NCBI GenBank assembly: GCA_964616985.1
Contig: CAZTVF010000002.1
Location: 25,114-89,113 of the forward strand
From: an uncultured Planctomycetaceae bacterium
Lineage (GTDB): Bacteria; Planctomycetota; Phycisphaerae; SM23-33
Reading direction: 5' to 3'
Length of the DNA stretch: 64,000 nt
The notes beneath the pieces are model-generated. The model was not told where the DNA came from and made no database searches. It saw only the letters and a program-made list of their open reading frames with translations. A program made the translations under genes and the position numbers. Numbering within the stretch: position 1 is the stretch's first letter; each line of letters begins with the position of its first letter. Positions 46,036 to 60,892 of the stretch are shown piece after piece.

Positions 46036-46243
46036 CGTCACGTCACCTGTTCCTATGGTGAGGTTCCAGTGTTGCGTCTTTGGCCTTGGCGAGACATAGC
46101 AGATCGCCCGGCGTTCGGCAACACCATGCATCATCTCCAACCCCTCTTTCGGTCCGGCCAGGGTAGTCCCTCATGCCTTTCCGCCCATAGGATCTAGCCC
46201 AATCCCATCACCTCCGCCGGCGGCAGCACATGCACGGCGCATG

Positions 46244-47069: not shown

Positions 47070-47528
47070 TCAGGCGGGGATTCGGTCAATGTACTTTCGC
47101 CCGATTGCGGCCAGGACCATGCCGACCACGGCGCCCAGCATCGCGACCGAAAGATAGCTGGCGATGATGAAAGTCTTCGCCTCTTCGAGATGGTTCGACT
47201 TGATGAGCGCCGTCAGCACGGGAAGCAGTGCCGAGCCAACTCCGATTCCCGCCCCGATAAGCATGCCGTCGACCAGCGTGCCCGGGCCCTGGGGGCTGCG
47301 ATGTTTGCACAGCCACGCGTTGACGCCATAGCGATTCATGTACGCCCCGATTGGAGCGCCAACGACAAGACACAGGCCGAGGCGAAGCAGGTACACCTCG
47401 CGGAACGGAATGAGGAGAAGCATGGCGGCAAACCACACCATCACGGGGACTGCACAGAACATCGCGCCGATCCATCCCGCATGCCGGATGTAGAACTCAC
47501 ACAGACGTTTCATGCCGAAGCCTCCCAC
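47070..47528 (-). CDS. small integral membrane protein (4 predicted TM helices)
   Basis: Hydrophobic segments WIGAMFCAVPVMVWFAAMLLLI, LGLCLVVGAPIGAY, MLIGAGIGVGSALLPVL and VAMLGAVVGMVLAAI. Confidence 0.5.
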   Translation of the reverse strand: MGGFGMKRLCEFYIRHAGWIGAMFCAVPVMVWFAAMLLLIPFREVYLLRLGLCLVVGAPIGAYMNRYGVNAWLCKHRSPQGPGTLVDGMLIGAGIGVGSALLPVLTALIKSNHLEEAKTFIIASYLSVAMLGAVVGMVLAAIGRKYIDRIPA

Positions 47529-47603
47529 ATTGGCCAGAGCGGACGCGTGAAGATGCCGATTGGAGAACCCGTCGCCCGCATGGTACCGCCGATGGCGGTC
47601 AAG

Positions 47604-49115
47604 TCAACCATGATGGTATGCGTCGGTTCGGAGTTGGGCCACGACCTGCGGGCACAAACCCTTCCATGCCTCGTAGCCGCCGTAGATCACGCGCACTTTC
47701 CGATGACCAGCCATCGCGAGCCGATACCCCGCCTCGAACGAGAAGATCCCGGTGGTGCACATGAAGATGACCTCGCGGTCGCGGGGGATCTCCCTGAAGT
47801 GCTTCTCCAGGCCGATGTGCGACCAGACCTTCGCCGACGGGATGCCTGGTGAGAGGATTCGCTCATACGACAACCGCAGATCGACGATGAAGGCGGCGGC
47901 AATGCGATCCCGCGTGAGGTGCTCCGGCGGCATCCAGGCGAGACCCTCGGGGTCGCCGCGGAGCACTCGCTGGAGCGCCCAGAGGAAGTATTTCACGTCG
48001 GCGGCCACCGTCGTCGTGCCCATGCTGATGCGGATCGAAGACAGGGCATCCTCGGCCGATAGCCCCATGCCCAGCAGCACGTGCGAGGGCTCGATGCGGT
48101 CGGCCGTGCAAGCCGAACCGATGGACACGGCGACCTGGTGACAATCGAGCCCGGCCAGGATGCTCAGCCCGCTGGCCCCGGGAAACGTGGCATTGACCGA
48201 GCCAGGCAACTGCCACGGCTCGGGGGCCTCGTTGATGCGGACCTGCGGGCACAGGCGGCGCATGCCGTCGATCATCATCTGCCGCAACCCTCGCAGCCGC
48301 TGCCGCTGCGTATCCATTCGCTCAGACGCCAAGGTCGCCGCGACGCCGAGGCCGACGATCTGATGCACCGCCTCGGTGCCCGTGCGCATCCGTCGCTCCT
48401 GGTCTCCGCCGGCGATCAGGGGCAGCCACTTGGCCCCGCCGCGCCAGTACAAGGCACCGGCGCCCTTGGGGCCGTTGATCTTGTGGGCAGTCAGCGTGAG
48501 GAACTCGCATCCCAGATCGTCGACGTTTGTCGGCAGTTTGCCGAACGTCTGCACGGCGTCGGTGTGCATCGGCACGTGGGAACGGCGGGCGATCTCGGCG
48601 ATCTCCTTCACCGGCTGGATGACCCCCGTCTCGTTGTTGGCGTGCATGACGGAGATCAGGACCGTGTCGGGCCCGATGGCCGAGGCGATGTCCTGGGGCC
48701 TCATGCGGCCGTCGGCGCCGGCGGGCACGTATGTCACGCGGGCGCCCTGTTTCTGGGCCTGCTCGCAGGCGCCCAACACCGAATCGTGTTCGATCCGCGT
48801 GGTGATGACGTGCCCGCCGCCGACCGCTTGAGGCGAATGAAGTGTGGACGCCGCCAGCACTCCCTTGATCACAGCGTTGTTGGCCTCCGTGCCGCCGGAG
48901 GTCAAGTAGACGTCATGCGCCTCGCAGCCCAGCACAGCCGCTACGGCGCGGCGGGCCTGCTCGACCGCGCCCCGTGCCGTACGGCCGGCAATGTGGAGCG
49001 AGGAGGGGTTGCCGTGAACCTTCCTGAGACACGCCGCCATCGCGCGGCGGACCTGCGGCGCCACGGGCGTCGTCGCGTTATGGTCCAGGTACGTTCGTCG
49101 TGGCCAGCGGATCAT
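47604..49115 (-). CDS. cysteine desulfurase (NifS/IscS class V aminotransferase) fused to a C-terminal rhodanese domain
   Basis: 'LDHNATTP', 'GNPSSLH', 'TSGGTEANN', 'HTDAVQ', 'LTAHKINGPKGAGAL' (PLP Lys), 'SIGSACTA' (catalytic Cys loop). A rhodanese follows with active-site loop 'VIFMCTTGIFS'. GGAG lies 7 nt before the ATG, which is 9 nt after the upstream stop. Confidence 0.85.
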   Translation of the reverse strand: MIRWPRRTYLDHNATTPVAPQVRRAMAACLRKVHGNPSSLHIAGRTARGAVEQARRAVAAVLGCEAHDVYLTSGGTEANNAVIKGVLAASTLHSPQAVGGGHVITTRIEHDSVLGACEQAQKQGARVTYVPAGADGRMRPQDIASAIGPDTVLISVMHANNETGVIQPVKEIAEIARRSHVPMHTDAVQTFGKLPTNVDDLGCEFLTLTAHKINGPKGAGALYWRGGAKWLPLIAGGDQERRMRTGTEAVHQIVGLGVAATLASERMDTQRQRLRGLRQMMIDGMRRLCPQVRINEAPEPWQLPGSVNATFPGASGLSILAGLDCHQVAVSIGSACTADRIEPSHVLLGMGLSAEDALSSIRISMGTTTVAADVKYFLWALQRVLRGDPEGLAWMPPEHLTRDRIAAAFIVDLRLSYERILSPGIPSAKVWSHIGLEKHFREIPRDREVIFMCTTGIFSFEAGYRLAMAGHRKVRVIYGGYEAWKGLCPQVVAQLRTDAYHHG

Positions 49116-49124
49116 GTGCGGCTC

Positions 49125-49751
49125 CTAGAAGACACCTGGGATGAAACGGTATCGGACCTTCGTCATGTATTCTCGGTATTCGGGAAAGCGGCAGAGGAAC
49201 CGTTCTTCGAGCACCGCCCGGTAGACATAGCAGGCGGTGGCGAAGGCCAGCATCGCCGCATTCCACAGGTACGGCAGGAACAGCAGCATGCCCACCTTCC
49301 AGAGGATGTCCGTCAGGTACATCGGGTGGCGCACGATCGAGTACATCCAGTCGGTCGTGATCTTCCGGGCTGCGATCAAGATGCCGAAGCTCCTGCCGAG
49401 GTTCAGCAGCGCCCCCGTGCCCAGCACCACGGCCAGGCCGATCACCGCCTGCGAGCACGTCCGCAGGATCGGGTCCTCGGTGGGTCTGCCGCCAAAGGCC
49501 AGGCCCGAATAGAACGCCGCCAGCGCCACGGCTTGGTGAAAGAGATTCGTGTCGACGGCGACGTGGGGGCGACGCACGAGGAAGATCACCAGCCAGATCA
49601 CGTTGTGGATGAGAAACGCGATCTGGACGAAGTTCAGCAGTTCGCCATCTCGCCAGCGGCACCACGTGTACCATGCGATCCACGCGCCGATGGACAGGAA
49701 TGCGCCCAGGTTAATCAGGAGGTGCTTGTGCCTGTTGATGAAGTCGTTCAT
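49125..49751 (-). CDS. ICMT/PEMT-family integral membrane methyltransferase
   Basis: Multi-TM protein with 'TDWMYSIVRHPMYL' and 'VLEERFL...FPEYREYMTKVRYRFIPGVF' signatures. ATG 49751 forms an ATGA overlap with the upstream stop. Confidence 0.75.
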   Translation of the reverse strand: MNDFINRHKHLLINLGAFLSIGAWIAWYTWCRWRDGELLNFVQIAFLIHNVIWLVIFLVRRPHVAVDTNLFHQAVALAAFYSGLAFGGRPTEDPILRTCSQAVIGLAVVLGTGALLNLGRSFGILIAARKITTDWMYSIVRHPMYLTDILWKVGMLLFLPYLWNAAMLAFATACYVYRAVLEERFLCRFPEYREYMTKVRYRFIPGVF

Positions 49752-51121
49752 CGCCTTCCCCCCATCACGTTGTGGCGGCAGGCGGGCGCGAGCCTGCCGT
49801 CGGCCTGCGGGTAGGCGTTGCAGCACCGGCGGAGGCGGGCGAGATCAAACGTATCGGCGTCCTGGAATGCGTGGATGAAGACCGACTTGATCCTTCGTTC
49901 GGCCGTGGCGAAGGTCTTGCGGGCGTCGAAGCACGCACAGTTCATCTCGGCCAGGACATTGCGAAGGGTCGCCAACACGGCCTGTCCGTCGGGGGCGGCT
50001 CCCACGGGGCCGCTCCACAGATCGTACACCATGTCCTTGAGGCGGTCGTGCTCCTGTTCATCCAGGCCAAACACCGTGCGGTTACTGAGTGTATCCATCA
50101 GCCCATCGGCCTGCACGAGGCGGTTGACCGCCGCCCGGCCGCCGCCATCGAGCATCAGGAAATATGCCAGCGAGAAGCACAGCGGATGGCTGCACGGCAG
50201 CGGCGCAAAGTCTTCCGCCGCCACCTTGCCCGTCGCGGCCAGAAGGCGGATCACGTCGGGAATCGTCAGGCGGCTCGCGCGGCCGGTCATGGCGGCGCCC
50301 CGGCCGGCGAAGGCAAGCGGCTGGATCATCAAGCTCACCACGTGCGGCTGTGAGAAGAAGTAATCCAACGTGGGCGAGAGTTCTTGCTCGTTCACGCCGC
50401 CCGCAAGCGTCATCGTGAGCGAGGTGGCAACGCCAGCCGAGGCGAGCAGATCGAGTACCCGCCGCTTGTCGTCCAGCATCGGCCGGCCTCGCAGCGTTTG
50501 GCAGGCGGCGTCATCGAACCCGTCGAACTGAAGCGAGATCACGACGTTTCGTTCCGCCAGCGCCGGCAGCAATTCGCGGTCGCGCAGCAGCGCCAGCCCG
50601 TTGGTCGAGATGCTCGTGCGGACAATCTCCGGCCGCTTGGCCGCCTCGTCCACCAGTCTCAGCAGGTGCGGGTGCATCAGCGGTTCCCCGCCGGACAGTG
50701 CGAGGATGTCCACCTGTCGTTCGGCCCGCAGCAGGCCGTCGAGCACACGGCGGAAAACCTCGACAGGCATATCCCAATCGCCGCCGGCCTGCGCGATGCA
50801 GATGGGGCAGGCCAGGTCGCATCGCCCCGTCACTTCGACGATGGGCATGCATAGATGCTGCTCGTGGCGCGTGCACATGCCGCAGCCATCGGGGCAGGGA
50901 GCCTTGGCATCGCCGGCGAATTTCAGGGGGGTCCACGCGGGCTTCACGAACCGCTGCGCCCGCAGGTACTGCTGCACGTCGGCATAGACGTACGTTCGCT
51001 GGCGGCCATGATCGGGGCAGAACTTGTCGAAGTAAACCTTGCCGTCGTCGGTCACCACCTTGGCCGGGACGATCTGCCGACAGACGCCGCACACGGATTG
51101 TGTCATGCCCAGCGTGTTCAT
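49748..51121 (-). CDS. radical-SAM enzyme with N-terminal Cys4/zinc-ribbon and extra Cys cluster (MJ0619/COG1964-like architecture)
   Basis: 'CGVCRQIV...KFCPDHG', 'CPDGCGMCTRHEQHLC', then the radical-SAM 'GRCDLACPIC' and 'LSGGEPL'. ATG 51121 forms an ATGA overlap with the upstream stop. Confidence 0.8.
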   Translation of the reverse strand: MNTLGMTQSVCGVCRQIVPAKVVTDDGKVYFDKFCPDHGRQRTYVYADVQQYLRAQRFVKPAWTPLKFAGDAKAPCPDGCGMCTRHEQHLCMPIVEVTGRCDLACPICIAQAGGDWDMPVEVFRRVLDGLLRAERQVDILALSGGEPLMHPHLLRLVDEAAKRPEIVRTSISTNGLALLRDRELLPALAERNVVISLQFDGFDDAACQTLRGRPMLDDKRRVLDLLASAGVATSLTMTLAGGVNEQELSPTLDYFFSQPHVVSLMIQPLAFAGRGAAMTGRASRLTIPDVIRLLAATGKVAAEDFAPLPCSHPLCFSLAYFLMLDGGGRAAVNRLVQADGLMDTLSNRTVFGLDEQEHDRLKDMVYDLWSGPVGAAPDGQAVLATLRNVLAEMNCACFDARKTFATAERRIKSVFIHAFQDADTFDLARLRRCCNAYPQADGRLAPACRHNVMGGRR

Positions 51122-52146
51122 GTTCGCGGCCTCACGGAGGTGAAGAACTCGCGGAACTGCCTCCAGCGAGGCGGCTTGTGCATGCATTCGGCAAACCCGC
51201 GGCAGCTGGTCCAGCACTGGGCGCAGGGCCGTGCGCGCTGCACACCCAGCAGGCGGTCGCGCAGGCCCGTCACGTCGTCGGACAGGATGTTGCCCACGGG
51301 CTCATCCAGCGTTTCGGTGCAACGGGCGACGTTGCCGTGGTTGTCGATGTTCATCAACAGGCGGCCGGTCTGGCAGTCGCCGATCCCGCCGACGGCGATC
51401 GCCCGGTCGAACTGTTCGATGTAGCTCGTGAGGGTGATGAACTCGGGATACTTCCGTTTGAGCCCCAGCAGGTGCTCCGTCACGCGGTCACTGGGCAGGC
51501 GCGGGCTCTTGGTGCCGCGGTTCCAGGAGTACAGGTTGACCATGTAGGTCACGCCGATCTGGCGGGCCAGTTGAATCAGCGGTTCGACATCCTGGAGGTT
51601 ATCGTCCATCAGCACGCTGATCATGTGAACCCGGTTTCGCTTGTCGGGCCGGTTCTTGTGCAGAAGTTCCAGTGCGCGCACGGCGCGGTCCCACGCGCCC
51701 ACGCGGCCGCGCTGGGCATCGTGGCGGGCGGGGTCGACATAGTCGACGGACACCGAGATCTCCTGCAGCCCGGCCTTGAGCAGGTCCTTGGCCTTGGCCT
51801 CGTCGACGAACCAGCCGTTGGTGATGAGGATGGGGAAGTGGTTCGCCTGGTTGAGGATTGTGATGATCTCGGGCAGGTCGTCACGGATCAGCGGCTCGCC
51901 CCCGGCCAGCGAAATGATCAACGTGCCCAGGCGGTTGAGCCTCGTGCCGATGACGCGGAAATCGTCCAGCGAGAGCTCGTCGGTGTTCTGGTAGTCCGGC
52001 TTCCAGAAGTCGCAGATCTGGCACTGGAAGTTGCAGCGATACGTGACCTGGAGATTGCAGTGCAGCATCCGCTTGAGCAGGAGGTTTCGCGCCAGCCGCA
52101 GGCAGCGATACTGGTAATGCACTTCCTTTCGCACAGCCGTCAGCAT
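51118..52146 (-). CDS. radical-SAM enzyme with SPASM-like C-terminal Cys motifs
   Basis: 'LQVTYRCNFQCQIC', 'LAGGEPL'. C-terminal 'GDCQTGRLLMNIDNHGNVARC' fits C-x12-G-x4-C, followed by 'CAQCWTSCRGFAEC'. ATG 52146 overlaps the upstream stop by 7 nt. Confidence 0.8.
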   Translation of the reverse strand: MLTAVRKEVHYQYRCLRLARNLLLKRMLHCNLQVTYRCNFQCQICDFWKPDYQNTDELSLDDFRVIGTRLNRLGTLIISLAGGEPLIRDDLPEIITILNQANHFPILITNGWFVDEAKAKDLLKAGLQEISVSVDYVDPARHDAQRGRVGAWDRAVRALELLHKNRPDKRNRVHMISVLMDDNLQDVEPLIQLARQIGVTYMVNLYSWNRGTKSPRLPSDRVTEHLLGLKRKYPEFITLTSYIEQFDRAIAVGGIGDCQTGRLLMNIDNHGNVARCTETLDEPVGNILSDDVTGLRDRLLGVQRARPCAQCWTSCRGFAECMHKPPRWRQFREFFTSVRPRT

Positions 52147-53153
52147 GATCGTCTCCAGTCTTTCAGTTCGCCCAGGGCCGCCAGCGGATGACGCTGAAGG
52201 AGCGACAGGGCCATGTGACAGAAGATGCGGCACTGGCCGCGGCAACCCGGCATCATCGTCCGCTCGATTCGTTCGGGCGTGAGCAGATCTCGATACCGCC
52301 CGGCCGGCGGGATAGCCAACTGCTCCTGCGGCCGCTCCAGGCAGGGCAGGTTGACCGTGCCGTCGGGGCGGATAGTGGGCATCAACAGCGGATGGCACGC
52401 GTAGTCGCTCCCGTCGCGGATGCCCCGCAGGTACCGGCCGATGCCGAGCACCGCGGCCCCGGCCACCTTGGCGGCAATCGCCTCATCGACGAGCGATCGA
52501 AACTCCTCGTTGTCCCGCAGGGCCGGATGCACTGCCGTGCCGACGATTTGCGGCGACAGTTGAAACCCCAGCTTGTGTCGCACCGCCAGGCGAAGCACGT
52601 CGCGGACATCCGACAGGTTGTCCGGCATGGCCACGGCCGACAGCGCGATCTGCGCGGAATAGTGCGATCGGTTTTCGATGACCCAGGCAAGCGAGGCGAG
52701 AGTATCCGCCGCGGCGGCAGCATCGCCGCCGATGAGGGCGGCCAGGCGGTCGGGGTCCAGAGAATCGATGCTGAGCACAAGCACGTCCGAAAGCCGCATG
52801 AGCTGGGGCCTTTGGGGTAGGTGCGGGCCCTTGGTGTTCAGCACCGTGCGGAAGCCGACGCCACGGGCACAGGTCAGCAGATCCTCCAGGTCCGCGCGGA
52901 GCAGCGGCTCGCCGCCGGTGAAGTCCAGCGTATCGCCATCGCGCCGCAATATGCGGATGAGGGCCTTCGCCTCCGCCGTAGTCAATTCCGCGACAGCATC
53001 TTCCTTGAACGGCCTGCCGCGGCCGTCGCTGCAGTGCCGGCAAGCCAGAGGGCAGCGGTGCGTGACATAGTAGGAGAACAGCAGCGGCCGCGTTGGCGGA
53101 CGGCCCATCGCGATCGCCGAGAGGTTCCGGACGTAGTTCACCACAAAGCCCAT
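52140..53153 (-). CDS. radical-SAM enzyme with SPASM/twitch-like C-terminal Cys motifs
   Basis: 'YYVTHRCPLACRHC', 'FTGGEPL'. C-terminal 'YACHPLLMPTIRPDGTVNLPC' and 'PGCRGQCRIFC'. ATG 53153 follows AGGAGG and shares 1 nt with the upstream TGA (TGATG). Confidence 0.8.
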   Translation of the reverse strand: MGFVVNYVRNLSAIAMGRPPTRPLLFSYYVTHRCPLACRHCSDGRGRPFKEDAVAELTTAEAKALIRILRRDGDTLDFTGGEPLLRADLEDLLTCARGVGFRTVLNTKGPHLPQRPQLMRLSDVLVLSIDSLDPDRLAALIGGDAAAAADTLASLAWVIENRSHYSAQIALSAVAMPDNLSDVRDVLRLAVRHKLGFQLSPQIVGTAVHPALRDNEEFRSLVDEAIAAKVAGAAVLGIGRYLRGIRDGSDYACHPLLMPTIRPDGTVNLPCLERPQEQLAIPPAGRYRDLLTPERIERTMMPGCRGQCRIFCHMALSLLQRHPLAALGELKDWRRSC

Positions 53154-53722
53154 CAGGCCTTGCCCTCCTTGGGCCCAAGGGGCCTGGCCGGCACGCCGCC
53201 CACGGTCGCATGGTCGGCCACGTCGCTCACGACGACGCTGCCCAGGCCGGTGGTGACGCCCTCGCCGACCGTCACGCCGCATCGCACGATCGACCACGCC
53301 CCAACCACGGAGCCCTTGCCGATCTGCACGCGACCCAGGCGAAAAAACCCGGCGGTGTATTCGTGCGTCAGCAGCCGGCAGCCGATGCCCAGGAAGCAGC
53401 CGTCCTGCAGTTCGATGAGTTGCGGGTAGAACGCGTCGATGAACACGCCCGGGGCGATGTAGACGCCCTTGCCGATCCGCACGCCCATCCGCCGGTACAG
53501 CCAAACCTTCGCGTGCGACCACGGCAGGCGGCTGACCAAGTACATGATCGCGAATCGCAGGTTGAACGTCAGGTCGATCCAGACCGTGGGGAACAGGATC
53601 TTGCACACGCCGTAGTTCTCGTGGCGATGCAGAACGAACGGGCGGGCCCTGTCGCCGGCCCACCAGTCGGCATAGGCCTGCCGCTCTGTTCTGAGTTGCT
53701 GCTGGTCCTGTTCACTCAACAT
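53153..53722 (-). CDS. hexapeptide-repeat (LbH) acyl/acetyltransferase with a hydrophobic N-terminal segment
   Basis: 'GVRIGKGVYIAPGVFID...IELQDGCFLGIGCRLL...VQIGKGSVVGAWSIVRCGVTVGEGVTTGLGSVVVSDV...VGGVPARPL'. The start overlaps the upstream stop by 11 nt. Confidence 0.8.
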   Translation of the reverse strand: MLSEQDQQQLRTERQAYADWWAGDRARPFVLHRHENYGVCKILFPTVWIDLTFNLRFAIMYLVSRLPWSHAKVWLYRRMGVRIGKGVYIAPGVFIDAFYPQLIELQDGCFLGIGCRLLTHEYTAGFFRLGRVQIGKGSVVGAWSIVRCGVTVGEGVTTGLGSVVVSDVADHATVGGVPARPLGPKEGKA

Positions 53723-55127
53723 AGAATCGCTCGTCCTGCATGCGGTAGAAGAGGTTGTAGGTGCACGCCGGCACCAGTCGTCCCGGCTGGCAGGGAACCT
53801 GATCGGGGCACATCATGGCGCGGGAACAATCGAAGGTGCCTTCATCCATGTGCGAATGAACGTACACCGTCCGGACGCACGACTCGGCCGCCCGGTGCCG
53901 CTCGAACACGCCCAGCGTGCGGTCCGCGGGGTACAGTTTCTCCAACACGCTGCGCAGAACCTGCAGGTGCTCGGTGCTTCCCTTGGCATACAGGTCGTTG
54001 ATCGCGTCGGTGAAGAATTCCTGCCCGCCCTGCGGCCGCAGCAGGTAGGAATCGCCCAGCAACTCCGTCAGCCGCTCGCGCGGTCCCAGCCTCGCCAGCG
54101 GCAGCATGCCCGACGGCGTCTTGAGGGCATAGCACAGCAGATAGCACAGCGGATGCGCCGAGGGGCGGGTGAGGAAATCATCGAATGCCAGTTCGCCATT
54201 CGTCTGCTCACAGACGATGCGGGCGGCCTCGTCCACGGGAATGTGGTCGGCGCGGGGAAAGCGCCCTCCGCCCTGGCCTGTGTAGGTCATGGTCTGCACG
54301 GTCAGGCTCCCGATGGCATCGTTCTGTCGCATCAGCGACCACAGGGGGGCGATGGCGGATTCGTTCACGCCGCGCACCATCACGTTCAGCAGCGTCATCC
54401 GCACGCCGGCCGCCGTGAGGTTGTCGATCGCCTTGAGCTTCGTCGCCACCAGGTCCCGGCCATGAAGCTGAACGCTGACTGCGGGGTCGAATGTATTGAA
54501 CGACAGGATCACGCTGACCCCGCGCTGGGCGAGCTGGCGGCAGAGTTCCTTGTCCTGGGCCAGTCGCAGGCCGTTGGAGTTCATCGTGATGCGGCCGATC
54601 TCGTCGCGGCGGCAGCAGTCGAGGAGATCCAGGATCTGCGGGTGCAGCGTGGGCTCGCCGCCGGTGATGTTGATCAGGTCCACGCTGCCGGAGGACTCGA
54701 TGATCCAGTCCACCGTTCGCCGCATCTCGTCGATGGGCATGTGGTGCAGCCGGTCGGCGCGGTTGTAGGTGAAGCAGATCGGGCATCGCAACTCGCATGC
54801 GTTCGTCACCGAAAGCACGGGCAGTTGGCAGGGCGATGCATGAAACGCGCACGGGCCGCAATCATGCGGACATCCGCGGGAGGGCTGGCGGCTGTGCGGC
54901 AGCGGCGAACGGTCCGGCATCGCCTTGAGCACCGAAGACATGTACCAGTTCGGGTCCGCGGCGATGAGCGCTGGCGCGTTCTCGCACGTGGGGCAAAGTG
55001 CCTGCTGCCACACCTTCCACTGGCGGAAAAACACCCGCGCGGGCACGACCTGGCGGCACGTGCGGCACATGCCCCGCACGGTCGTGAAGTACGTATAGTC
55101 ACGTTCGGTCAGTCGCGCCATGGTCAC
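53712..55127 (-). CDS. radical-SAM enzyme with N-terminal Cys4/zinc-ribbon and extra Cys cluster (paralog type of 49748..51121)
   Basis: 'CRTCRQVV...LCPTCE', 'CPHDCGPCAFHASPC', radical-SAM 'TNACELRCPIC', 'ITGGEPT'. GTG 55127 forms a GTGA overlap with the upstream stop (alternative ATG at 55121). Confidence 0.8.
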   Translation of the reverse strand: MTMARLTERDYTYFTTVRGMCRTCRQVVPARVFFRQWKVWQQALCPTCENAPALIAADPNWYMSSVLKAMPDRSPLPHSRQPSRGCPHDCGPCAFHASPCQLPVLSVTNACELRCPICFTYNRADRLHHMPIDEMRRTVDWIIESSGSVDLINITGGEPTLHPQILDLLDCCRRDEIGRITMNSNGLRLAQDKELCRQLAQRGVSVILSFNTFDPAVSVQLHGRDLVATKLKAIDNLTAAGVRMTLLNVMVRGVNESAIAPLWSLMRQNDAIGSLTVQTMTYTGQGGGRFPRADHIPVDEAARIVCEQTNGELAFDDFLTRPSAHPLCYLLCYALKTPSGMLPLARLGPRERLTELLGDSYLLRPQGGQEFFTDAINDLYAKGSTEHLQVLRSVLEKLYPADRTLGVFERHRAAESCVRTVYVHSHMDEGTFDCSRAMMCPDQVPCQPGRLVPACTYNLFYRMQDERFYVE

Positions 55128-55585
55128 TCCCGCCCCTGTGCCAGCGGCCGGTGGATCTGCGAGAACAAGACCCTCAGGTCATCAGGATCGTGGAAGTCCG
55201 CCAGGGCCGCCGGAATGGCGAGGCACCCCTTGCCCGTGGCGATCGTTCGCCCCGAGGAGGAGGCTACCCCGTGGAACACGACGCCGTCGCTGCGATAACT
55301 CGCGACCTGGACATCCATATGAAGGCTTTGCCCGGGCCCCAGCGGCTCGTGAAAACGAACCTCTTCGAATCGGACCAGCAGGCCCATCTGCGTGAAGTCC
55401 GACGACAGGACGATCAGCCAATTGCCCAGTTGGAACAGGGCCTCCATCAACAGGCTTTCGGGCAGCGAAGCCTCGCGGCCCATCCGGCTGCGCAGGCAGT
55501 ATTCCTCGAGCGACAGGGCCTTGATGCCCGCGATGCTCCGCTGCATCTGCCAATCGAGGATCCTGTCCACCATGCGGAACTTCAT
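55124..55585 (-). CDS. hot-dog-fold protein (FabA/FabZ-like but lacking the canonical HFP His motif)
   Basis: 'MKFRMVDRILDW...IAGIKALSLEE...LPESLLMEALFQLGNWL...RFEEVRFHEPLGPGQSL'. It aligns in layout with the FabZ at 59733..60185, but 'DHFPxxPVMPG' is replaced by 'RMGREASLPES'. The ORF-track extension to 56236 is an out-of-frame overlap with the reductase gene. Confidence 0.65.
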   Translation of the reverse strand: MKFRMVDRILDWQMQRSIAGIKALSLEEYCLRSRMGREASLPESLLMEALFQLGNWLIVLSSDFTQMGLLVRFEEVRFHEPLGPGQSLHMDVQVASYRSDGVVFHGVASSSGRTIATGKGCLAIPAALADFHDPDDLRVLFSQIHRPLAQGRE

Positions 55586-56319
55586 CAGATGCCCCCGTCG
55601 ACGAAGATCGACTGCGCGTTGATGTAGCTGCTGCGGCCGCTGGCCAGGAACGCCACCAGTTCGGCGACCTCGGCCGGCTCGCCCGCGCGAGACAGGCAGC
55701 AGAAGTCGTTGTACTTTTCCCGCTGGCGGGGCGGCACGTTCTCGCTGACTCCGCCGCTGAGCATGCCCGGCACGACGGCGTTGACGCGGATGTTGTACCG
55801 CCCCAGCTCGCGGGCAAGCGAAAGCGTGAAGCCCATCACGGCGCTCTTGGCGGTGGCGTAATGAACCGGAACCTCCAGCACGCGCATGCCCGCCAGCGAC
55901 CCCAGATTGACGATGTTGCCGCTCTTGCGGCGGATCATGCCGCGCGCGAATGCCTTGGTGGCCAGGAACATGCCTTTGACGTTCACGTCCATCACCAGGT
56001 CCCAGTCCTTCTCCTCGATCATGGCGAAGGGCATGACCTGCGTGGCGCCGGCGTTGTTGACCAGCACGTCGACGCGGCCCATGTCCTGCTCGATCGTCTG
56101 GGCCAGGGCCTGGCAGGCCGTGGCGTCCAGCACGTCCAGCGGATAGGCGCGAACCGTCCCGCCGGCGTCGAGGCACTGCTGCTGGAGCGCCTGGGCCCGG
56201 TCGGCATGCGAATGGTACGAGAATGCGACGCGGCAATGCTCGCGGACCAGCACGCGCACGATGGCTGAGCCCACGGCCCCGCTGCCGCCGGTCACAAAGG
56301 CAACCTTCCCCTCAAGCAT
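55585..56319 (-). CDS. 3-oxoacyl-ACP reductase-like SDR (FabG-like)
   Basis: 'GKVAFVTGGSGAVGSAI' (TGxxxGxG), 'NNAG', 'YATAKSAV' (YxxxK), 'PGMLSGG'. ATG 56319 overlaps the ACP stop by 8 nt. Confidence 0.85.
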   Translation of the reverse strand: MLEGKVAFVTGGSGAVGSAIVRVLVREHCRVAFSYHSHADRAQALQQQCLDAGGTVRAYPLDVLDATACQALAQTIEQDMGRVDVLVNNAGATQVMPFAMIEEKDWDLVMDVNVKGMFLATKAFARGMIRRKSGNIVNLGSLAGMRVLEVPVHYATAKSAVMGFTLSLARELGRYNIRVNAVVPGMLSGGVSENVPPRQREKYNDFCCLSRAGEPAEVAELVAFLASGRSSYINAQSIFVDGGI

Positions 56320-56725: not shown

Positions 56726-56729
56726 GGAT

Positions 56730-57338
56730 TCACCTGTATTCCACAATGTGCTCAACGGACTTCCTTCGGGGCGGCGGTGTTGTCTCGGTCGCGTAGCCCA
56801 CGGCTACAAGGCACGTGGGCTCAAACCCGGCCGGCAGGTCCAGCGACTGCCAGACTTCACCTGCCAGCAGCGGGGCGGTCATGACGCACGCGCCGAGCCC
56901 AAGCACGTGGGCTGCCAGCAGCATGTTCTGCACGGCCATCGCGGTGCTGATCGCCTCGCTGCTGGCGCGTCGCGGGTCGGCGCCGACCAGGGACTTGCCG
57001 ATCGCGGGGCTCTTCTTGCTCATGGCCAGGACCACCACGGGGGCGGCCTCGAACACCGTCGCGAAATGCAGAAGCTCCTGCCCTTGAGCAGCCAGCAGGC
57101 CCTGTGTTCCCGCGAGGCTCTCGCCCAGGCCGTGGCGCACCTGCTGGGCCAGCTGGCGAATCTGGGCCGCATCGCGAAACACCAGGAACTTCCACCCCTG
57201 GCGGTTGTGGTTCGACGGCGCCCACCGGGCCGCCTCGATCAGCTTGTCGAGCATGGCCTGTTCGGGCCGGCGATCCGTGAACGCCCGCACCGAACGTCGC
57301 GAGCGAAGCACCTCGAAGAATGCCTCTTCCTGCGTCAC
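56730..57338 (-). CDS. nitroreductase-family (FMN) oxidoreductase
   Basis: 'LRSRRSVRAFTDRRPEQAMLDKLIEAARWAPSNHNRQGWKFLVF'. GTG 57338 is preceded by GGGAGG and forms a GTGA overlap with the KAS stop. The ORF-track extension to 57464 overlaps the KAS gene. Confidence 0.75.
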   Translation of the reverse strand: MTQEEAFFEVLRSRRSVRAFTDRRPEQAMLDKLIEAARWAPSNHNRQGWKFLVFRDAAQIRQLAQQVRHGLGESLAGTQGLLAAQGQELLHFATVFEAAPVVVLAMSKKSPAIGKSLVGADPRRASSEAISTAMAVQNMLLAAHVLGLGACVMTAPLLAGEVWQSLDLPAGFEPTCLVAVGYATETTPPPRRKSVEHIVEYR

Positions 57339-58591
57339 GAGCACCTCCCGAAGATCAGCGTGGCGTTCTGCCCGCCGAAACCGAATGAGTTCGACAACAC
57401 CGTGCGGCCCTCGAACGGCCGGGCGGTGAGCGGAACATAATCGAGGTCGCACTGGGGATCGCACGCGTGGAGGTTGATCGTGGGCGGCACGCGCCGGTGT
57501 CGAAGGGTCAGTGCTGCCGCAGCCGCCTCGACCGCGCCGCTGGCGGCAATCATGTGGCCGGTCATCGACTTCACCGCGTGCACCGGCACGCGGTACGCTC
57601 GCGGGCCCAGCACTTCCTTGATGGCCGCCGTCTCGACGGCGTCGTTCTTCACCGTGCCCGTCCCGTGGGCGCTGACGCAGTCGATCTGCTCCGGCGACAG
57701 GTTGGCATCAGCCAAGGCCATGGTCATGCTCTGCACCGCGCCCCTGCCGCTGGGCTCGGGGTCCGATACGCGGAAGCCGTCCATCGAGCAGCCGTAGCCG
57801 AGTACCTCCGCATACGGCGCGACGCCGCGGGCCAGCGCGTCATCGAGACGCTCGAGGACCATGAACGCGGCACCCTCGCCCAGGACCGTGCCTTTACGCG
57901 TGGCATCGAAAGGTCGGCACGCGAGATGCGGCGTGTCATTCTCGGCCGAGAGCACGCGGAGCAGGCCAAACCCGCCCAGGCCCAGCGGGTTGAGCATGCT
58001 ATCGATGGCACCGGCCAACGCAACTGTCGCCTCGCCGCGGCGAAGCAGGCGCAGCGCCTCGCCCACCGCCTGGGCGCCGGCGGCGCACGCGGCACAATTC
58101 GTGAACCGCCCGCCGAGGAAGCCGTAGCTTCCGCCAAGGATTTCCGCCGTTGTGTCCAGCGGCGTCTGCAGGAGCTTGCCCGCCAGCAAGGCCGGAAGCT
58201 GCGACGCAATCGCCTGCCCGATGTCGTCGGCCTGCGCAAATGCCGTCAAGTCCTCCAGGCACAGCATCTCCAGCCCGACGCCCACGTGCAGCGATGCGTC
58301 CTGCAAGGTGGCCTCGGCAAGGCCGCTGTCGCCGATAGCGTCACGGGCGGCCTCCAGGCCGAGCAGCACCTTGCGGTCGCGGCAGGGCGCCGCCTGCCCG
58401 AACGCCTGGATCACAGACGCCGCATCGAAGTCGTTCACCTGCCCACCGATCCGCACGGGGAATTCCGACGCGTCGAAGTGAGTGATGGGCCCCAGGCCGC
58501 AGCGCCCGCCAGAGAGTCCCCGCCAGAAGCCGTCGCGCCCGTTGCCCACGGGGCTCAGCACGCCAATGCCGGTGACGACGATCCGGATCAT
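57335..58591 (-). CDS. beta-ketoacyl-ACP synthase II-like (active KS)
   Basis: 'MIRIVVTGIGVLSPVG', active-site 'NCAACAAGAQA', 'VSAHGTGTVKND', 'VKSMTGHMIAASG', 'SNSFGFGGQNATLIF'. ATG 58591 forms an ATGA overlap. The ORF-track extension to 59584 is an Arg/Pro/Gly shadow over the CLF gene. Confidence 0.9.
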   Translation of the reverse strand: MIRIVVTGIGVLSPVGNGRDGFWRGLSGGRCGLGPITHFDASEFPVRIGGQVNDFDAASVIQAFGQAAPCRDRKVLLGLEAARDAIGDSGLAEATLQDASLHVGVGLEMLCLEDLTAFAQADDIGQAIASQLPALLAGKLLQTPLDTTAEILGGSYGFLGGRFTNCAACAAGAQAVGEALRLLRRGEATVALAGAIDSMLNPLGLGGFGLLRVLSAENDTPHLACRPFDATRKGTVLGEGAAFMVLERLDDALARGVAPYAEVLGYGCSMDGFRVSDPEPSGRGAVQSMTMALADANLSPEQIDCVSAHGTGTVKNDAVETAAIKEVLGPRAYRVPVHAVKSMTGHMIAASGAVEAAAAALTLRHRRVPPTINLHACDPQCDLDYVPLTARPFEGRTVLSNSFGFGGQNATLIFGRCS

Positions 58592-59718
58592 ACGCCCTCC
58601 AGCAGCAAAGCGCCTTGCTGGCTGCCGTGGCCAAAGCAGTGGGCCAGCACGTGTTTGCCCGCCCCTGCACCATGGGCCATCGTGGCGGCCAGCGCCACCT
58701 GGACGGCGGCGGCCGCGGCAAACAGGTTGCCCAGGTATCGCTTGGGATGCACTCGCCGGCCGACGAGCAGCGATGCCCGCGCGATCGCTTCTGTTTCCGC
58801 CTGGGCGATGAAACGGTCGCCATCGCCCGCCGGGACGAGATCCACTGCGCCGCCTGCCCCGATGTCGCCGATCACGTTGCGGAACGTCGCCGCTAGGTCT
58901 GCGGGCGTGGGGGCGGTTCGCATCACATGCCGGGCCACCCTGGCATATATTCGGGCGCCGCGCGCCCGTGCTTGCCGTTCCTCCTCCAGCACGAGGAAGG
59001 CGGCGCCCTCGCCGGGAATGGAGCCCTCGCCGTGCTGTGCCCACGAGCGGAACGCCCCGATCTGCTGCAGGCTGACGAAGGCGAATTCGTGCGTCCGCAC
59101 ATCGCTCCCGCCCACCAGCGCGCACGCAACGCGGCCCTCCTGGATTTCCCGCACCCCGGCGGCGATCGCCTGCACGCCTTGCCCTTCCCACGGTGTATAG
59201 ATGCCGTTGGGGCCGCGAATGTTCGCGAAGATCGAGACGAAGCAGATCGGCATGTTGGCCAGGATCTTGAACGATAGCACCGGCCGGACGCGCTTGAGCG
59301 CCACGCGGCCGAATTGGGCCAGGTCCAGCCCGCCTTGGGCGTCGGCTGAGTGCTTGACCAGCGAACTGACCTCCTCGGCCGCCATACCGGTCAGGCCGGT
59401 GGCGCCGAAAAGTGCGATGGCCTGGGACGGATACGTCTGGCCCGGCTGGAGGTCGGCGTCGGCTAACGCCAGGCGCGCCGCCGCCACGGCCAGTTGCGCG
59501 TCGCGACTCATGAGCCGCAGGGATTTGCCGTCTTCGACATATTGCTCGGGGTGAAACTCTGCGATCGGGGCGACGGACTTGCACAGCAGCGACGTCGTAT
59601 CGAACGCCGGCCGCCGCGAGGCCGACTCGCCCCGCGCGATCCGCTCCAGCACCGCCGCCGGCGTGGCGCCCAGCGGCGTCACCAGCCCCAGTCCCGTTAT
59701 GACCACCTTTTCGTACAT
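58588..59718 (-). CDS. ketosynthase-like protein lacking the catalytic triad (chain-length-factor / KS-beta-like)
   Basis: 'MYEKVVITGLGLVTPLG' gives a KS fold throughout. The Cys position reads 'IYTPWEGQGVQA' (C to E). No 'HGTGT' is present (the region reads 'LVPAGDGDRF'). 'KxxxGH' is replaced by 'KRYLGNLFAAAAA'. Confidence 0.8.
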   Translation of the reverse strand: MYEKVVITGLGLVTPLGATPAAVLERIARGESASRRPAFDTTSLLCKSVAPIAEFHPEQYVEDGKSLRLMSRDAQLAVAAARLALADADLQPGQTYPSQAIALFGATGLTGMAAEEVSSLVKHSADAQGGLDLAQFGRVALKRVRPVLSFKILANMPICFVSIFANIRGPNGIYTPWEGQGVQAIAAGVREIQEGRVACALVGGSDVRTHEFAFVSLQQIGAFRSWAQHGEGSIPGEGAAFLVLEEERQARARGARIYARVARHVMRTAPTPADLAATFRNVIGDIGAGGAVDLVPAGDGDRFIAQAETEAIARASLLVGRRVHPKRYLGNLFAAAAAVQVALAATMAHGAGAGKHVLAHCFGHGSQQGALLLEGV

Positions 59719-59732
59719 GCCGCCCTTCTCGC

Positions 59733-60185
59733 TTACGGCTGCATCCAGAGCTTCATCATCGTCTTTCGCTTCTGGGCCAACTGCGGATCGTCCACGTACA
59801 TGAACGCGAAGGCCATGCCGGAACTGACCACCGGTTCCCCGTCCCGCAGGGCCTGCACGGCCACCTTGCCGCCGTTTTCGTTCAGGGCCGTCACCTCGGT
59901 CCTGTACGTGAGCGTGTCGCCCGGCCGGACGAACTCGCGAAACTTCGTCCGCTCCAGCAGCGTCAGCACCGCCTTGGCATCCCTGGCGTATTTGTCCAGC
60001 AGGCTCGCCTCCAGCAGCAGGCCCGACACCTGCGCCATCCCCTCGATCATCAGCACGCCCGGCATGACGGGCCGACGCGGGAAGTGGTCGTCGAAGAAAT
60101 CCTCGCTCAAGGCGACGTTCTTGATCGCCTCTGCCGAGCGGCCCACCTCCCACCGCGTGATTCGGTCAATCAGAAAGAATCGCAT
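59733..60185 (-). CDS. 3-hydroxyacyl-ACP dehydratase, FabZ-type
   Basis: 'MRFFLIDRI...EDFFDDHFPRRPVMPGVLMIEGMAQVSG' is the canonical FabZ motif. GGAGGAGG lies 4 nt upstream of ATG 60185. Confidence 0.85.
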   Translation of the reverse strand: MRFFLIDRITRWEVGRSAEAIKNVALSEDFFDDHFPRRPVMPGVLMIEGMAQVSGLLLEASLLDKYARDAKAVLTLLERTKFREFVRPGDTLTYRTEVTALNENGGKVAVQALRDGEPVVSSGMAFAFMYVDDPQLAQKRKTMMKLWMQP

Positions 60186-60864: not shown

Positions 60865-60892
60865 ACTATAGGTGCGCATACTAATGCGTCAA
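60865..60892 (-). promoter_or_regulatory. sigma70-like promoter of the lipid operon
   Basis: The minus strand reads TTGACG (60892-60887), a 16-nt spacer, then TATAGT (60870-60865). AGGTGGA lies 4-5 nt before ATG 60835. The element sits in the only AT-rich stretch of this region. Confidence 0.5.

Follow-up and report, generated by a model that had tools for sequence, protein, structure and literature searches.

A proposed acyl-chain operon with Tes-like radical-SAM enzymes in uncultured bacteria

The archaeal tetraether synthase GDGT-MAS (MJ0619), whose mechanism and lipid pocket have been described (PMC9433317), is an archaeal cousin of two of the enzymes considered here. [quoted passage not shown] Here, we analyze the window, a stretch of 64,000 nucleotides from an uncultured Planctomycetaceae bacterium. 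A sequence-only reading of this DNA had placed a quartet of rSAM genes at 49748-55127, with characteristic cysteine motifs in the outer two. An ORF check located all four genes on the minus strand at those coordinates; each matches Pfam Radical_SAM (E 1e-14 to 5e-24) and keeps both SAM-binding motifs, CX3CX2C and GGEP. They do not form an unbroken run, as a hexapeptide-repeat acyltransferase gene separates rSAM_A from rSAM_B.

Two pairs of radical-SAM enzymes

In the outer pair, rSAM_A carries C21-x2-C24...C45-x2-C48, C86-x3-C90-x2-C93-x2-H96-x3-C100 and C111-x3-C115-x2-C118, and rSAM_D carries C11-x2-C14...C35-x2-H38, C76-x3-C80-x2-C83-x2-H86-x4-C91 and C101-x3-C105-x2-C108. These residues are 85-100% conserved across 51 A-type and 55 D-type orthologues, so the motifs are not chance. 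The MJ0619/COG1964/Tes-type architecture proposed for the pair was confirmed by Pfam (Zn_ribbon_HMPTM, 58.6 bits for rSAM_D and weak for rSAM_A), by NCBIfam, in which Tes and TrsS are the top matches, by full-length alignment of both proteins to 7TOL, the crystal-structure sequence of GDGT-MAS, and by Foldseek, which ranked 7TOL first (E 4e-20; second match 2e-8). Each enzyme has a rubredoxin-like site (Cys4 in rSAM_A, Cys3His in rSAM_D), the rSAM cluster and two more clusters, an auxiliary one in the N-terminal part and another in the C-terminal part. Both keep every ligand of the four metal sites of GDGT-MAS, and C9/C12/C33, C73/C77/C80/H83, C98/C102/C105 and C338/C455/C470 are 98-100% conserved among 106 orthologues. 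The AlphaFold2 (AF2) model of rSAM_D is poor (pLDDT 57), and the start codon of rSAM_A could be the ATG at 55121 instead of the GTG at 55127.

Neither enzyme is a Tes orthologue. Their scores against NCBIfam Tes and TrsS lie far under the cut-offs, and both fall into clades of their own, outside the Met439 clade; Met439, invariant in archaeal Tes, is an invariant His in both, and Tes Tyr459 is kept in rSAM_D but is Val in rSAM_A. As the M439A and Y459F/L variants of GDGT-MAS remain active (PMC9433317), these positions mark the family and tell little about mechanism. We read the outer pair as paralogous subfamilies, bacterial cousins of Tes. Given this non-orthology, their chemistry may be other than C-C coupling; that they act on a lipid is something we infer.

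The auxiliary cysteines of the inner pair are C258-x12-G-x4-C276 with C308-x2-C311-x3-C315 in rSAM_C, and C253-x11-G-x5-C271 with C304-x3-C308-x3-C312 in rSAM_B, all 96-100% conserved. The C-x12-G-x4/5-C pattern proposed earlier thus fits rSAM_C (x12, x4), while the first spacing in rSAM_B is x11. Similarly, a twitch/SPASM-type C-terminal cluster domain was recovered, but with five auxiliary cysteines only rather than the seven-Cys SPASM signature, and neither protein matches Pfam SPASM. The inner pair are therefore small enzymes of twitch-like or partial SPASM type. Because they have five auxiliary cysteines and no B12 domain, a GrsA-like identity was ruled out. The 120 best matches listed for rSAM_C are 69-87% identical, and its AF2 model (pLDDT 78) has BlsE, MoaA, SkfB and SuiB as closest folds. 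Placement within the anSME or peptide-maturase families, which would have spoken against a lipid enzyme, was not seen; both pairs match these at the generic rSAM level only (TM 0.5-0.7, 14-20% identity).

A conserved, translationally coupled operon

The operon spans about 13.7 kb (16 genes, 47070-60835, minus strand), in the order regulator, FabZ-like dehydratase (DH1), chain-length-factor-like protein (CLF), ketosynthase (KS), nitroreductase, long ACP, ketoreductase (KR), second dehydratase-like protein (DH2), rSAM_A, hexapeptide acyltransferase, rSAM_B, rSAM_C, rSAM_D, ICMT-like methyltransferase, NifS-rhodanese and a small membrane protein (Table 1). At nearly all junctions the stop codon of one gene overlaps or adjoins the start codon of the next: the regulator gene runs 16 nt into DH1, the KS gene shares 4 nt with the CLF stop, and the ICMT-like ATG comes straight after the rSAM_D stop. 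One promoter-like site, a weak consensus match, lies upstream of the whole operon. The four rSAM genes form the core of this translationally coupled operon. Its flanks encode unrelated polysaccharide-degrading enzymes.

Table 1. Operon features, with the matches behind each annotation
Feature	Position	Strand	Evidence
Promoter-like site TTGACG-16-TATAGT, upstream of first gene	60865..60892	-	10/12 consensus matches
LexA DNA-binding + IS200-like Y1 transposase domain fusion, 221 aa	60170..60835	-	LexA_DNA_bind 72, Y1_Tnp 46 bits (Pfam)
DH1, FabZ-like 3-hydroxyacyl-ACP dehydratase	59733..60185	-	Pfam FabA 88 bits
CLF, chain-length-factor-like degenerate ketosynthase	58588..59718	-	ketoacyl-synt N-terminal domain match only
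KS, FabF-like ketosynthase	57335..58591	-	Pfam ketoacyl-synt N- and C-terminal domains
Nitroreductase-superfamily flavoprotein (BluB/FbiB-C-like)	56730..57344	-	Pfam Nitroreductase 119 bits; start codon uncertain
Dedicated ACP, 137 aa	56312..56725	-	Pfam PP-binding
KR, FabG-like 3-oxoacyl-ACP reductase	55585..56319	-	adh_short_C2 187 bits; FabG subfamily 213, cut-off 222
DH2, FabZ/FabA-like hotdog protein	55124..55585	-	Pfam FabA 31.6 bits
rSAM_A, Tes-like radical-SAM enzyme	53712..55127	-	7TOL E 1.3e-37; TrsS 182, Tes 168 bits
Hexapeptide-repeat (left-handed beta-helix) acyl/acetyltransferase	53153..53722	-	Pfam Hexapep
rSAM_B, twitch-type radical-SAM enzyme	52140..53153	-	rSAM Cys 34/38/41; auxiliary Cys 253/271/304/308/312
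rSAM_C, twitch-type radical-SAM enzyme	51118..52146	-	very high conservation
rSAM_D, Tes-like radical-SAM enzyme	49748..51121	-	7TOL E 1.6e-48; TrsS 262, Tes 212 bits
ICMT/PEMT-like integral-membrane carboxyl O-methyltransferase	49125..49751	-	Pfam PEMT, ICMT
NifS-type cysteine desulfurase + C-terminal rhodanese domain	47604..49115	-	Aminotran_5 233, Rhodanese 30, NifS 386 bits
TM152, small hydrophobic protein	47070..47513	-	no Pfam match

A genome scan recovered 60 loci, all from metagenome-assembled genomes (MAGs), most of which repeat this gene order; two independent look-ups recovered it as well. The MAGs are labelled Planctomycetota, Verrucomicrobiota, Victivallales, Elusimicrobiota, Desulfobacterales, Nitrospirae and Riflebacteria (about seven phyla). 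Victivallis vadensis is a natural carrier. Among the loci, 39 extend 8.5 kb or more upstream of rSAM_D; every one of these has rSAM_A beside rSAM_D, accompanied by the ACP in 36, the KS in 33, the nitroreductase in 33 and the acyltransferase in 30. rSAM_C was found in 16 of the 24 loci with both flanks; as they are absent from about a third of loci, B and C may be accessory.

Within the acyl-chain module, the KS has its catalytic Cys in a NCAACAAG motif, its catalytic residues, including His-Lys-His, are invariant (35 orthologues), and it scores 380 bits against NCBIfam fabF (cut-off 494) and, in the PDB, 323 bits against FabF 1e5m and 207 against the ishigamide KS 6kxd. The best PDB score of the CLF is 66 bits against the 323 of the KS; the two KS catalytic His are replaced by Ala and Asn/Asp (20 orthologues), and a Glu appears to occupy the catalytic Cys position, where the alignment is uncertain. 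DH1 scores 111 bits against NCBIfam fabZ, below the cut-off; 37 orthologues keep its catalytic motif DHFPxxPxMPGVLxxEGMAQ, and the orthologue adjoining P0040 also matches Pfam ApeI-like. DH2 lacks the catalytic His (the HF position is never His in 43 orthologues) and is probably a partner subunit of DH1. The ACP, which the earlier reading had correctly set near the quartet, carries about 60 extra aa at its C-terminus, conserved like its DLGAeS.DLLDL Ser motif (length 131-144 aa in 40 orthologues). The flavoprotein scores about 67-69 bits against NCBIfam BluB and FbiB C-terminal, below their cut-offs. Genes for an enoyl reductase, a thioesterase or a precursor peptide are absent from the operon's gene list.

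The LexA/Y1 fusion, a putative regulator of the cluster, recurs at about 50% identity in four loci: it immediately precedes DH1 in L004, L006 and L037, whereas in L044 it stands two genes upstream of DH1. The hexapeptide protein best matches NCBIfam heptaprenylglyceryl phosphate O-acetyltransferase (80 bits, cut-off 300). The ICMT-like protein shares conserved RHPMY and EE.FL motifs with its orthologues (17 compared). TM152, probably a multi-pass membrane protein, has homologues in about 20 loci (43-71% identity), where they either closely precede DH1 or follow NifS. Of 44 loci, 31 have a gene with a rhodanese domain downstream of rSAM_D; this is a NifS-rhodanese fusion or, immediately following rSAM_D, a rhodanese joined to a Cys-rich membrane domain.

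Proposed function and its alternatives

We propose, as the most likely reading, though one for which we consider the chances evenly balanced, that the operon directs ACP-dependent synthesis of a special acyl chain, on which Tes-type radical chemistry then forms a cross-link or a ring. The KS/CLF heterodimer, KR, catalytic DH1 with its His-less partner DH2, and the long ACP would produce the acyl-ACP. Because the cluster has no enoyl reductase, the chain would probably be unsaturated; the nitroreductase-type flavoprotein is a possible ene-reductase, and as a housekeeping FabI could act in trans, the chain need not be a polyene. rSAM_A and rSAM_D would take up the hydrophobic chain or chains and, as in GDGT-MAS, generate a 5'-deoxyadenosyl radical twice in succession. 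The radical first formed on the substrate would be held at the C-terminal [4Fe-4S] cluster, as a C-S adduct, until the second closes a C-C bond, either as a ring within one chain or as a cross-link between two. B and C may perform further radical steps, the membrane-associated acyltransferase, methyltransferase and small membrane protein could finish or place the product, and NifS-rhodanese would feed or repair sulfur for roughly ten Fe-S clusters. No published account of the 16-gene operon was found in the literature searched, where, as first suspected, no described bacterial pathway matches it.

Alternatively, A and D could be functional equivalents of Tes/Mss that couple the tails of two ordinary or branched fatty acyl chains in membrane glycerolipids, with the FAS-like genes only supplying a suitable chain; the Tes-like enzymes might even act on ordinary membrane lipids and be simply co-located with those genes. 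The metal-site architecture of Tes is fully kept in both, bacterial Tes homologues have been hypothesised to make brGDGTs (PMC8941075), 110 of 684 anoxic Black Sea Planctomycetota MAGs carry Tes homologues (PMC11868695), and carriers of the operon come from peat, lake sediment, groundwater and anoxic water. However, brGDGT-linked Acidobacteria have the closest bacterial Tes homologues on record, which share 40-42% identity with archaeal Tes (PMC8941075), and A and D score far lower and lie outside the Met439 clade. We consider this explanation unlikely, as genes of glycerolipid, ether-forming (Ger, ElbD) or Mss type are missing from the cluster, and coupling bulk membrane-lipid tails needs no dedicated KS/CLF, long ACP or carboxyl methyltransferase.

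In LipA, BioB and AbmM, an auxiliary cluster serves as sulfur donor. The Tes-like and/or twitch enzymes could work in the same way to give a thiolated or thioether-bridged acyl product, with NifS-rhodanese as the dedicated source of the sulfur. Among the accessory features of the loci none is as constant as the rhodanese domain, although it was not seen within the flank in 13 of 44, and a load of about ten Fe-S clusters accounts for the desulfurase equally well. The best PDB sequence match of rSAM_B is AbmM (8WM2, E 6e-6), a sulfur-inserting enzyme, but the similarity is limited to the generic rSAM core. The reaction of GDGT-MAS itself passes through a true C-S(cluster) intermediate with the substrate, and a lipid that contains sulfur is set free under limiting SAM (PMC9433317). 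On balance, sulfur insertion seems rather improbable.

FAS-like clusters with rSAM genes have been proposed to make ladderanes or polyunsaturated precursors in anammox bacteria, and genome-mining tools give ladderane-type annotations elsewhere too. Our operon resembles the clusters of Rattray et al. (PMC2649909) in outline (FAS-like genes, a KS/CLF-like pair, rSAM genes), and several of the non-anammox phyla that have it also show 'Ladderane' calls (PMC9902471). This reading is nevertheless disfavoured and very unlikely: ladderanes are known from anammox bacteria only, both Cluster I enzymes named above are absent from the window, and the genome scan recovered no true anammox genome, the two loci labelled Kuenenia and Brocadiaceae having 61% GC and probably being mislabelled.

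Peptide or cofactor maturation (a RiPP, PQQ/mycofactocin-like or pterin-methylation pathway), suggested by the twitch/SPASM fold that B and C share with peptide maturases and by the old MJ0619 name '7,8-dihydro-6-hydroxymethylpterin dimethyltransferase' on rSAM_D homologues in JGI, is scarcely credible, as the overlapping genes leave no space for a precursor-peptide ORF, the cluster has no RRE, protease, transporter or pterin gene, the constant partners of the quartet are ACP, KS, KR and DH, and the pterin function of MJ0619 was not reproducible, the enzyme demonstrated being a lipid synthase (PMC9433317).

Under the proposed acyl-chain pathway, the end product would be an undescribed lipid-like molecule, encoded by an operon that is conserved across many uncultured anaerobic bacteria.

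Organisation and distribution of the operon

The four radical-SAM (rSAM) genes, rSAM_A to rSAM_D (hereafter A to D), belong to a 16-gene operon; at almost every junction a gene's start overlaps or directly adjoins the stop of the gene before it. A single promoter-like site lies upstream of it. A terminator scan gave no convincing terminator within the operon, and a total near the expectation from shuffled sequence. The sequence-only reading had presented the four genes as one contiguous quartet, with an outer pair (A and D) flanking an inner pair (B and C). This contiguity does not hold, as a hexapeptide acyltransferase gene sits between A and B.

The sixteen genes of the operon and the surrounding features, in window positions
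Feature	Product or content	Position	Strand
Promoter-like site	Sole such site upstream of the operon	60892-60865	
Operon	16 genes	47070-60835	minus
Gene 1	LexA-HTH/Y1-transposase fusion	60170-60835	minus
Gene 2	DH1, FabZ-like dehydratase; catalytic His and Glu retained		minus
Gene 3	CLF (chain-length-factor-like), dead ketosynthase; two catalytic His replaced by Ala and Asn/Asp		minus
Gene 4	KS, FabF-like ketosynthase		minus
Gene 5	Nitroreductase-family flavoprotein		minus
Gene 6	ACP, acyl carrier protein; 137 aa, conserved C-terminal extension	56312-56725	minus
Gene 7	KR, FabG-like ketoreductase		minus
Gene 8	DH2, dehydratase without catalytic His		minus
Gene 9	rSAM_A	53712-55127	minus
Gene 10	Hexapeptide acyltransferase	53153-53722	minus
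Gene 11	rSAM_B	52140-53153	minus
Gene 12	rSAM_C	51118-52146	minus
Gene 13	rSAM_D	49748-51121	minus
Gene 14	ICMT/PEMT-like methyltransferase		minus
Gene 15	NifS-rhodanese		minus
Gene 16	Small hydrophobic membrane protein, ~147 aa, no Pfam family	47070-47513	minus
Flank, above the operon	TolC-like gene	above 61574	opposite to the operon
Flank, below the operon	Sulfatases (two, one with a TAT signal); oligogalacturonate-lyase-like, URO-D-like and GH42-like proteins	36488-46140	minus
Giant ORF	Single 7177-aa ORF	12702-34235	minus

The sulfatase, oligogalacturonate lyase and GH42-like genes below 47070 are unrelated to the operon and look like a polysaccharide-utilisation neighbourhood. Further along, the 7177-aa ORF combines many right-handed beta-helix/NosD repeats with malectin, Big_5, dockerin and Kre9/KNH-like domains, and looks like a giant surface protein of a type known from Planctomycetota.

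At a GC content of ~65%, long spurious ORFs are plentiful in the window. The four minus-strand ORFs are real genes: they give strong Pfam Radical_SAM matches, all four carry CX3CX2C and GGEP motifs (read as GGEPT and GGEPL in the outer pair), and they have hundreds of close public relatives. D returned 612 matches at E <= 1e-3, at most 79% identical, and C returned 686 at E <= 1e-5; the best 120 of the latter are 69-87% identical and come in part from MAGs named Sumerlaeota, Riflebacteria and Ozemobacter. The cysteine motifs quoted from the outer pair are present and are conserved at 85-100% in 51 A-type and 55 D-type orthologues, and those of the inner pair at 96-100% (24 B-type and 36 C-type orthologues).

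One scan of species-representative genomes yielded 60 loci, all in MAGs. Loci labelled Planctomycetota come from Phycisphaerae, Pirellulales, Gemmataceae and Thermoguttaceae, and the other labels include Verrucomicrobiota, Elusimicrobiota, Desulfobacterales, 'Deltaproteobacteria', Nitrospirae and Riflebacteria/Ozemobacter; the Victivallales-labelled loci include two Victivallis vadensis MAGs. Searching with 14 window proteins by tblastn showed that most of the 60 loci share the gene order, and two independent look-ups gave matching gene arrangements. A adjoins D in all 39 loci with enough upstream sequence, and the same 39 frequently hold the ACP (36), the KS (33), the nitroreductase (33) and the acyltransferase (30). 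C was found in 16 of the 24 loci having both flanks; its sequence conservation is unusually high for an accessory enzyme, yet it is missing from about a third of loci.

Downstream of D, 31 of 44 loci have either the ICMT and NifS-rhodanese genes or a fusion gene that joins a rhodanese to a Cys-rich multi-pass membrane domain. The fusion gene directly follows D in 20 loci without ICMT and NifS (for example L014 16649-17929 and L008 11390-12697). Its product combines a signal-anchor and a rhodanese domain with ~280 aa of multi-pass membrane domain, which belongs to no Pfam family and carries a conserved C.A..LC..C.KY..VPC motif. We compared this membrane domain with the ICMT-like protein as a possible homologue and found no homology. 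The ~147-aa membrane protein recurs in ~20 loci at one of two places, immediately ahead of DH1 or following NifS.

Other features vary between loci. A LexA-Y1 fusion recurs at ~50% identity, directly upstream of DH1 in L004 (254-853), L006 (253-840) and L037 (173-841) and two genes upstream of it in L044 (1921-2541); it may be a domesticated transposase serving as a cluster regulator. Many loci (for example L011, L015, L016, L026-L030) have a second SDR/KR between the KS and the nitroreductase that the window lacks, so the assembly module may come in two or more sub-types. L028, L030 (13468-14793) and L053 carry a B12-binding rSAM gene a few kb beyond the downstream end of the operon, and such genes may be the source of 'GrsA homologue' matches in Planctomycetota MAGs.

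Two loci bear anammox names, L017 ('Candidatus Kuenenia stuttgartiensis') and L044 ('candidatus Brocadiaceae'). Their contigs have ~61% GC, and since true anammox genomes have ~41-45%, the labels are probably wrong. Presence of the operon in true anammox bacteria, which would depend on these two doubtful labels, was set aside.

Comparison of the outer pair with archaeal Tes

An architecture of the type seen in MJ0619 (Tes, also called GDGT-MAS) had been suggested for the outer pair by the sequence-only reading, and the searches bear this out. Tes joins two lipid tails at their terminal carbons and has a hydrophobic tunnel leading to the 5'-dA site. The Pfam model Zn_ribbon_HMPTM, which describes the MJ0619 N-terminal ribbon, scored 58.6 bits with D and matched A weakly. 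The best two NCBIfam models for both proteins are TrsS and Tes. In a sequence search of the entire PDB the sole strong match was the MJ0619 structure 7TOL, aligned from the ribbon through the C-terminal cysteines (E 1.6e-48 for D, 1.3e-37 for A), with MoaA second at ~6e-9. An AF2 model of D, poor at pLDDT 57 and used for fold search only, placed 7TOL/7TOM first in Foldseek (E 4e-20) and MoaA next (2e-8). Tes (7TOL/7TOM) falls in InterPro superfamily IPR034474. A and D themselves are 30% identical over their full length.

To compare the metal sites, the MJ0619 sequence was rebuilt from printed alignments and aligned with the 106 outer-pair orthologues, taking the description in Lloyd et al. (PMC9433317) as reference. 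The four-domain layout and the ligands of Tes are shared by A and D. The rubredoxin-like site C9-X2-C12-X20-C33-X2-H36 (MJ0619 numbering) is kept, with C9, C12 and C33 at 98-100%; position 36 is His in D-type proteins (85%) and Cys in A-type proteins (90%). In both types conservation is complete for the N-terminal auxiliary [4Fe-4S] ligands (C73, C77, C80 and His83), for the rSAM cluster (C98, C102 and C105) and for C338, C455 and C470 of the C-terminal domain. From the alignment we infer that these last three would be ligands of the C-terminal auxiliary cluster, which the paper does not state.

The two families depart from Tes at further positions. Met439, a labile ligand in GDGT-MAS that is fully conserved across 1000 archaeal homologues (PMC9433317), is replaced by His in every A-type and D-type sequence. 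Tyr459, likewise fully conserved in the archaeal homologues, is kept in 100% of D-type proteins but is Val in 98% of the A-type. D retains the CC pair of Tes along with this tyrosine, whereas A has Pro-x-x-Val where Tes has Cys456 and Tyr459. Each family also has invariant cysteines of its own (C100 in A; C91 and C310 in D).

A HMMER search of the whole library gave 362 representatives (50% identity) at E <= 1e-30, and a rough NJ tree, built on 103 full-length members, separated A-type and D-type proteins into two clades, both outside the Met439 clade of MJ0619. On this evidence A and D share the Tes architecture but are not orthologues of Tes. Their scores with the NCBIfam Tes model (NF045702; D 212 and A 168 bits) are below its equivalog cut-off of 450. 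The best model, TrsS (NF045646), matches over the whole length at 262 bits for D and 182 for A, again short of the cut-off (490). No selenocysteine was noticed in the A or D sequences, unlike the TrsS (seleno)protein family, and as TrsS has no assigned function the match transfers none to A or D. The setting differs from that of Tes as well: A and D are an obligate bacterial pair, and their neighbours are an ACP/KS/CLF module, not isoprenoid lipid genes.

The inner pair as twitch-type enzymes

B and C are 27% identical and have the rSAM core alone in common. Both combine a hairpin motif, CX(11-12)GX(4-5)C, with a CX(2-3)CX3C group, giving five conserved auxiliary cysteines arranged 2 + 3. The motif C-x12-G-x4/5-C, which had been ascribed to both, is correct for C; B reads C-x11-G-x5-C. 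Of the proposed SPASM/twitch-like signature the twitch half stands and the full SPASM half does not. The SPASM signature tested (CX9-15GX4C ... CX2CX5CX3C ... C, two auxiliary clusters) has seven to eight auxiliary cysteines against the five found here, and Pfam SPASM (PF13186) gave no match.

For C, an AF2 model at pLDDT 78 gave BlsE (TM 0.68), SkfB (0.64) and MoaA (0.60) as best folds and also matched SuiB, DesII and anSME, with identities of 14-20% across the fold matches. Judged by the cysteine motifs and the predicted fold of C, B and C fall in the twitch/SPASM class in general. With twitch enzymes of the BlsE, MoaA, SkfB and BtrN type they share the rSAM core, the C-terminal beta-hairpin motif and a second cysteine group, although identity is only 15-20% and the substrates of those enzymes (nucleotides, sugars and peptides) are without counterpart in the operon. 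A GrsA-like identity was also considered. GrsA and GrsB are B12-rSAM enzymes with an N-terminal B12-binding Rossmann domain and without an auxiliary Fe-S cluster (reviewed in PMC13459092), whereas B and C lack a B12 domain, have an rSAM motif beginning at residues 34-45 and contain auxiliary cysteines; the identity was rejected. No Gms- or Mss-named NCBIfam model was among the best 25 matches listed for the rSAM proteins.

A proposed acyl-chain pathway and its alternatives

The assembly module resembles type II polyene synthases. Polyene type II systems (Ape; ishigamide Iga11/12) and anammox amxFabF2/amxFabFmut pair a KS with a catalytically dead KS-like partner, as the operon does. The likeness extends to a dedicated ACP, a FabG-like KR, the lack of an enoyl reductase and a pair of FabZ-like hotdog proteins of which one is non-canonical. 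The core set is present, but the Ape accessories (aryl-starter ligase, LolA-like proteins, MMPL exporter and thioesterase) are missing both in the window and across the 60 loci, so the operon was not assigned to the Ape type; the glycosyl-/acyltransferase set of Ape clusters is lacking as well. The KS scores 323 bits against FabF and 207 against the ishigamide KS, which makes FabF the closer of the two. Polyene clusters are not known to carry Tes-like rSAM enzymes.

Domain content, metal-ligand conservation and strict genetic linkage are established directly. That the pathway as a whole remodels an ACP-built acyl chain by Tes-type radical chemistry has, in our judgement, about an even chance. 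The KS/CLF, KR and DH1/DH2 system would assemble a dedicated acyl-ACP, whose chain is probably unsaturated since the cluster has no enoyl reductase. The obligate pair of A and D would then carry out a Tes-type double H-abstraction, storing the first radical on the C-terminal cluster, and form a C-C bond within one chain or between chains. B and C may contribute further radical steps, while the acyltransferase, the carboxyl methyltransferase and the membrane proteins would complete the product at the membrane. More tentatively, the product could represent a new bacterial class of lipid or natural product, in which a chain on a dedicated ACP is cyclised or cross-linked, possibly thiolated, with an Fe-S cluster holding the first radical.

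Of the two main rivals, a genuine membrane-spanning brGDGT-type synthesis seems doubtful. A role in brGDGT synthesis was proposed by Zeng et al. (2022), who reported 456 bacterial Tes homologues (PMC8941075); homologues of GDGT-MAS in bacteria, without an assigned function, were also pointed out by Lloyd et al. (2022; PMC9433317). A Black Sea study, working at BLAST E < 1e-30 and identity of at least 30%, reported a Tes homologue in 110 and a GrsA homologue in 94 of its 684 Planctomycetota MAGs (PMC11868695); D would probably pass these thresholds. These three papers leave the gene neighbourhood of the bacterial homologues undiscussed. Our literature search returned no relevant paper joining Tes/GDGT-MAS homologues with ACP/ketosynthase clusters, or ladderane with GDGT-MAS. 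Sulfur insertion, the other main rival, we regard as distinctly improbable; in the acyl-chain scheme the NifS-rhodanese would supply the roughly ten Fe-S clusters.

A ladderane role is unlikely. The anammox 'ladderane' Cluster I (KustE3603-3608) includes amxACP, amxFabZ and FabF2/FabFmut, together with a phytoene-desaturase homologue and a B12-dependent rSAM, and is restricted to anammox bacteria (PMC10139942; bioRxiv 2026.05.19.726425). Membership of Cluster I was rejected, as the operon has neither phytoene desaturase nor B12-rSAM and its carriers are non-anammox. Rattray et al. (2009) described clusters that combine FAS-like and rSAM genes, kuste3339-3343 in K. stuttgartiensis and DP1853/DP1855 in Desulfotalea psychrophila (PMC2649909). 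By description their outline is similar (FabZ, ACP and FabG, then two rSAM genes; a non-canonical FabF without the active-site Cys; an 'oxidoreductase' also listed), but the gene order is different and phytoene desaturase, phenylacetyl-CoA ligase and SAM methylases are added. These clusters may be related to the operon. A Desulfobacterales A-type query had no Desulfotalea among its best 120 matches, which were MAG and metagenome sequences only. A peptide or cofactor role is likewise unlikely.

The finding is real and non-trivial. Bacterial Tes homologues have been known since 2022, brGDGTs are widely used palaeoclimate biomarkers, and a 2026 review describes rSAM lipid modification as nearly all restricted to isoprenoid lipids (PMC13459092). 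Here, in MAGs labelled with about seven phyla, two Tes-like enzymes are tightly linked to an ACP-dependent module of fatty-acid/polyketide type, and this linkage yields a concrete hypothesis that can be tested, in which their substrate would be the acyl chain carried by the adjacent ACP. Victivallis vadensis indicates a cultivable carrier lineage. The operon is widespread and uncharacterised, and it places the Tes-like enzymes of bacteria in a concrete biochemical setting.

Should the product turn out to be a lipid that is cross-linked or cyclised, cluster-mediated Csp3-Csp3 coupling would extend to bacterial fatty-acyl chemistry and producers of orphan sedimentary lipids would be named. In that case 'Tes homologue' matches defined by E-value and identity, such as those of the Black Sea Planctomycetota, should be read with caution, as they may include A/D-type paralogues in place of true Tes. 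The new product class, if true, would mean that Tes-type C-C (or C-S) coupling acts for the first time on ketoacyl instead of isoprenoid substrates, and could be a source of the orphan ring-bearing or membrane-spanning lipids of anoxic peat, lake and marine settings.
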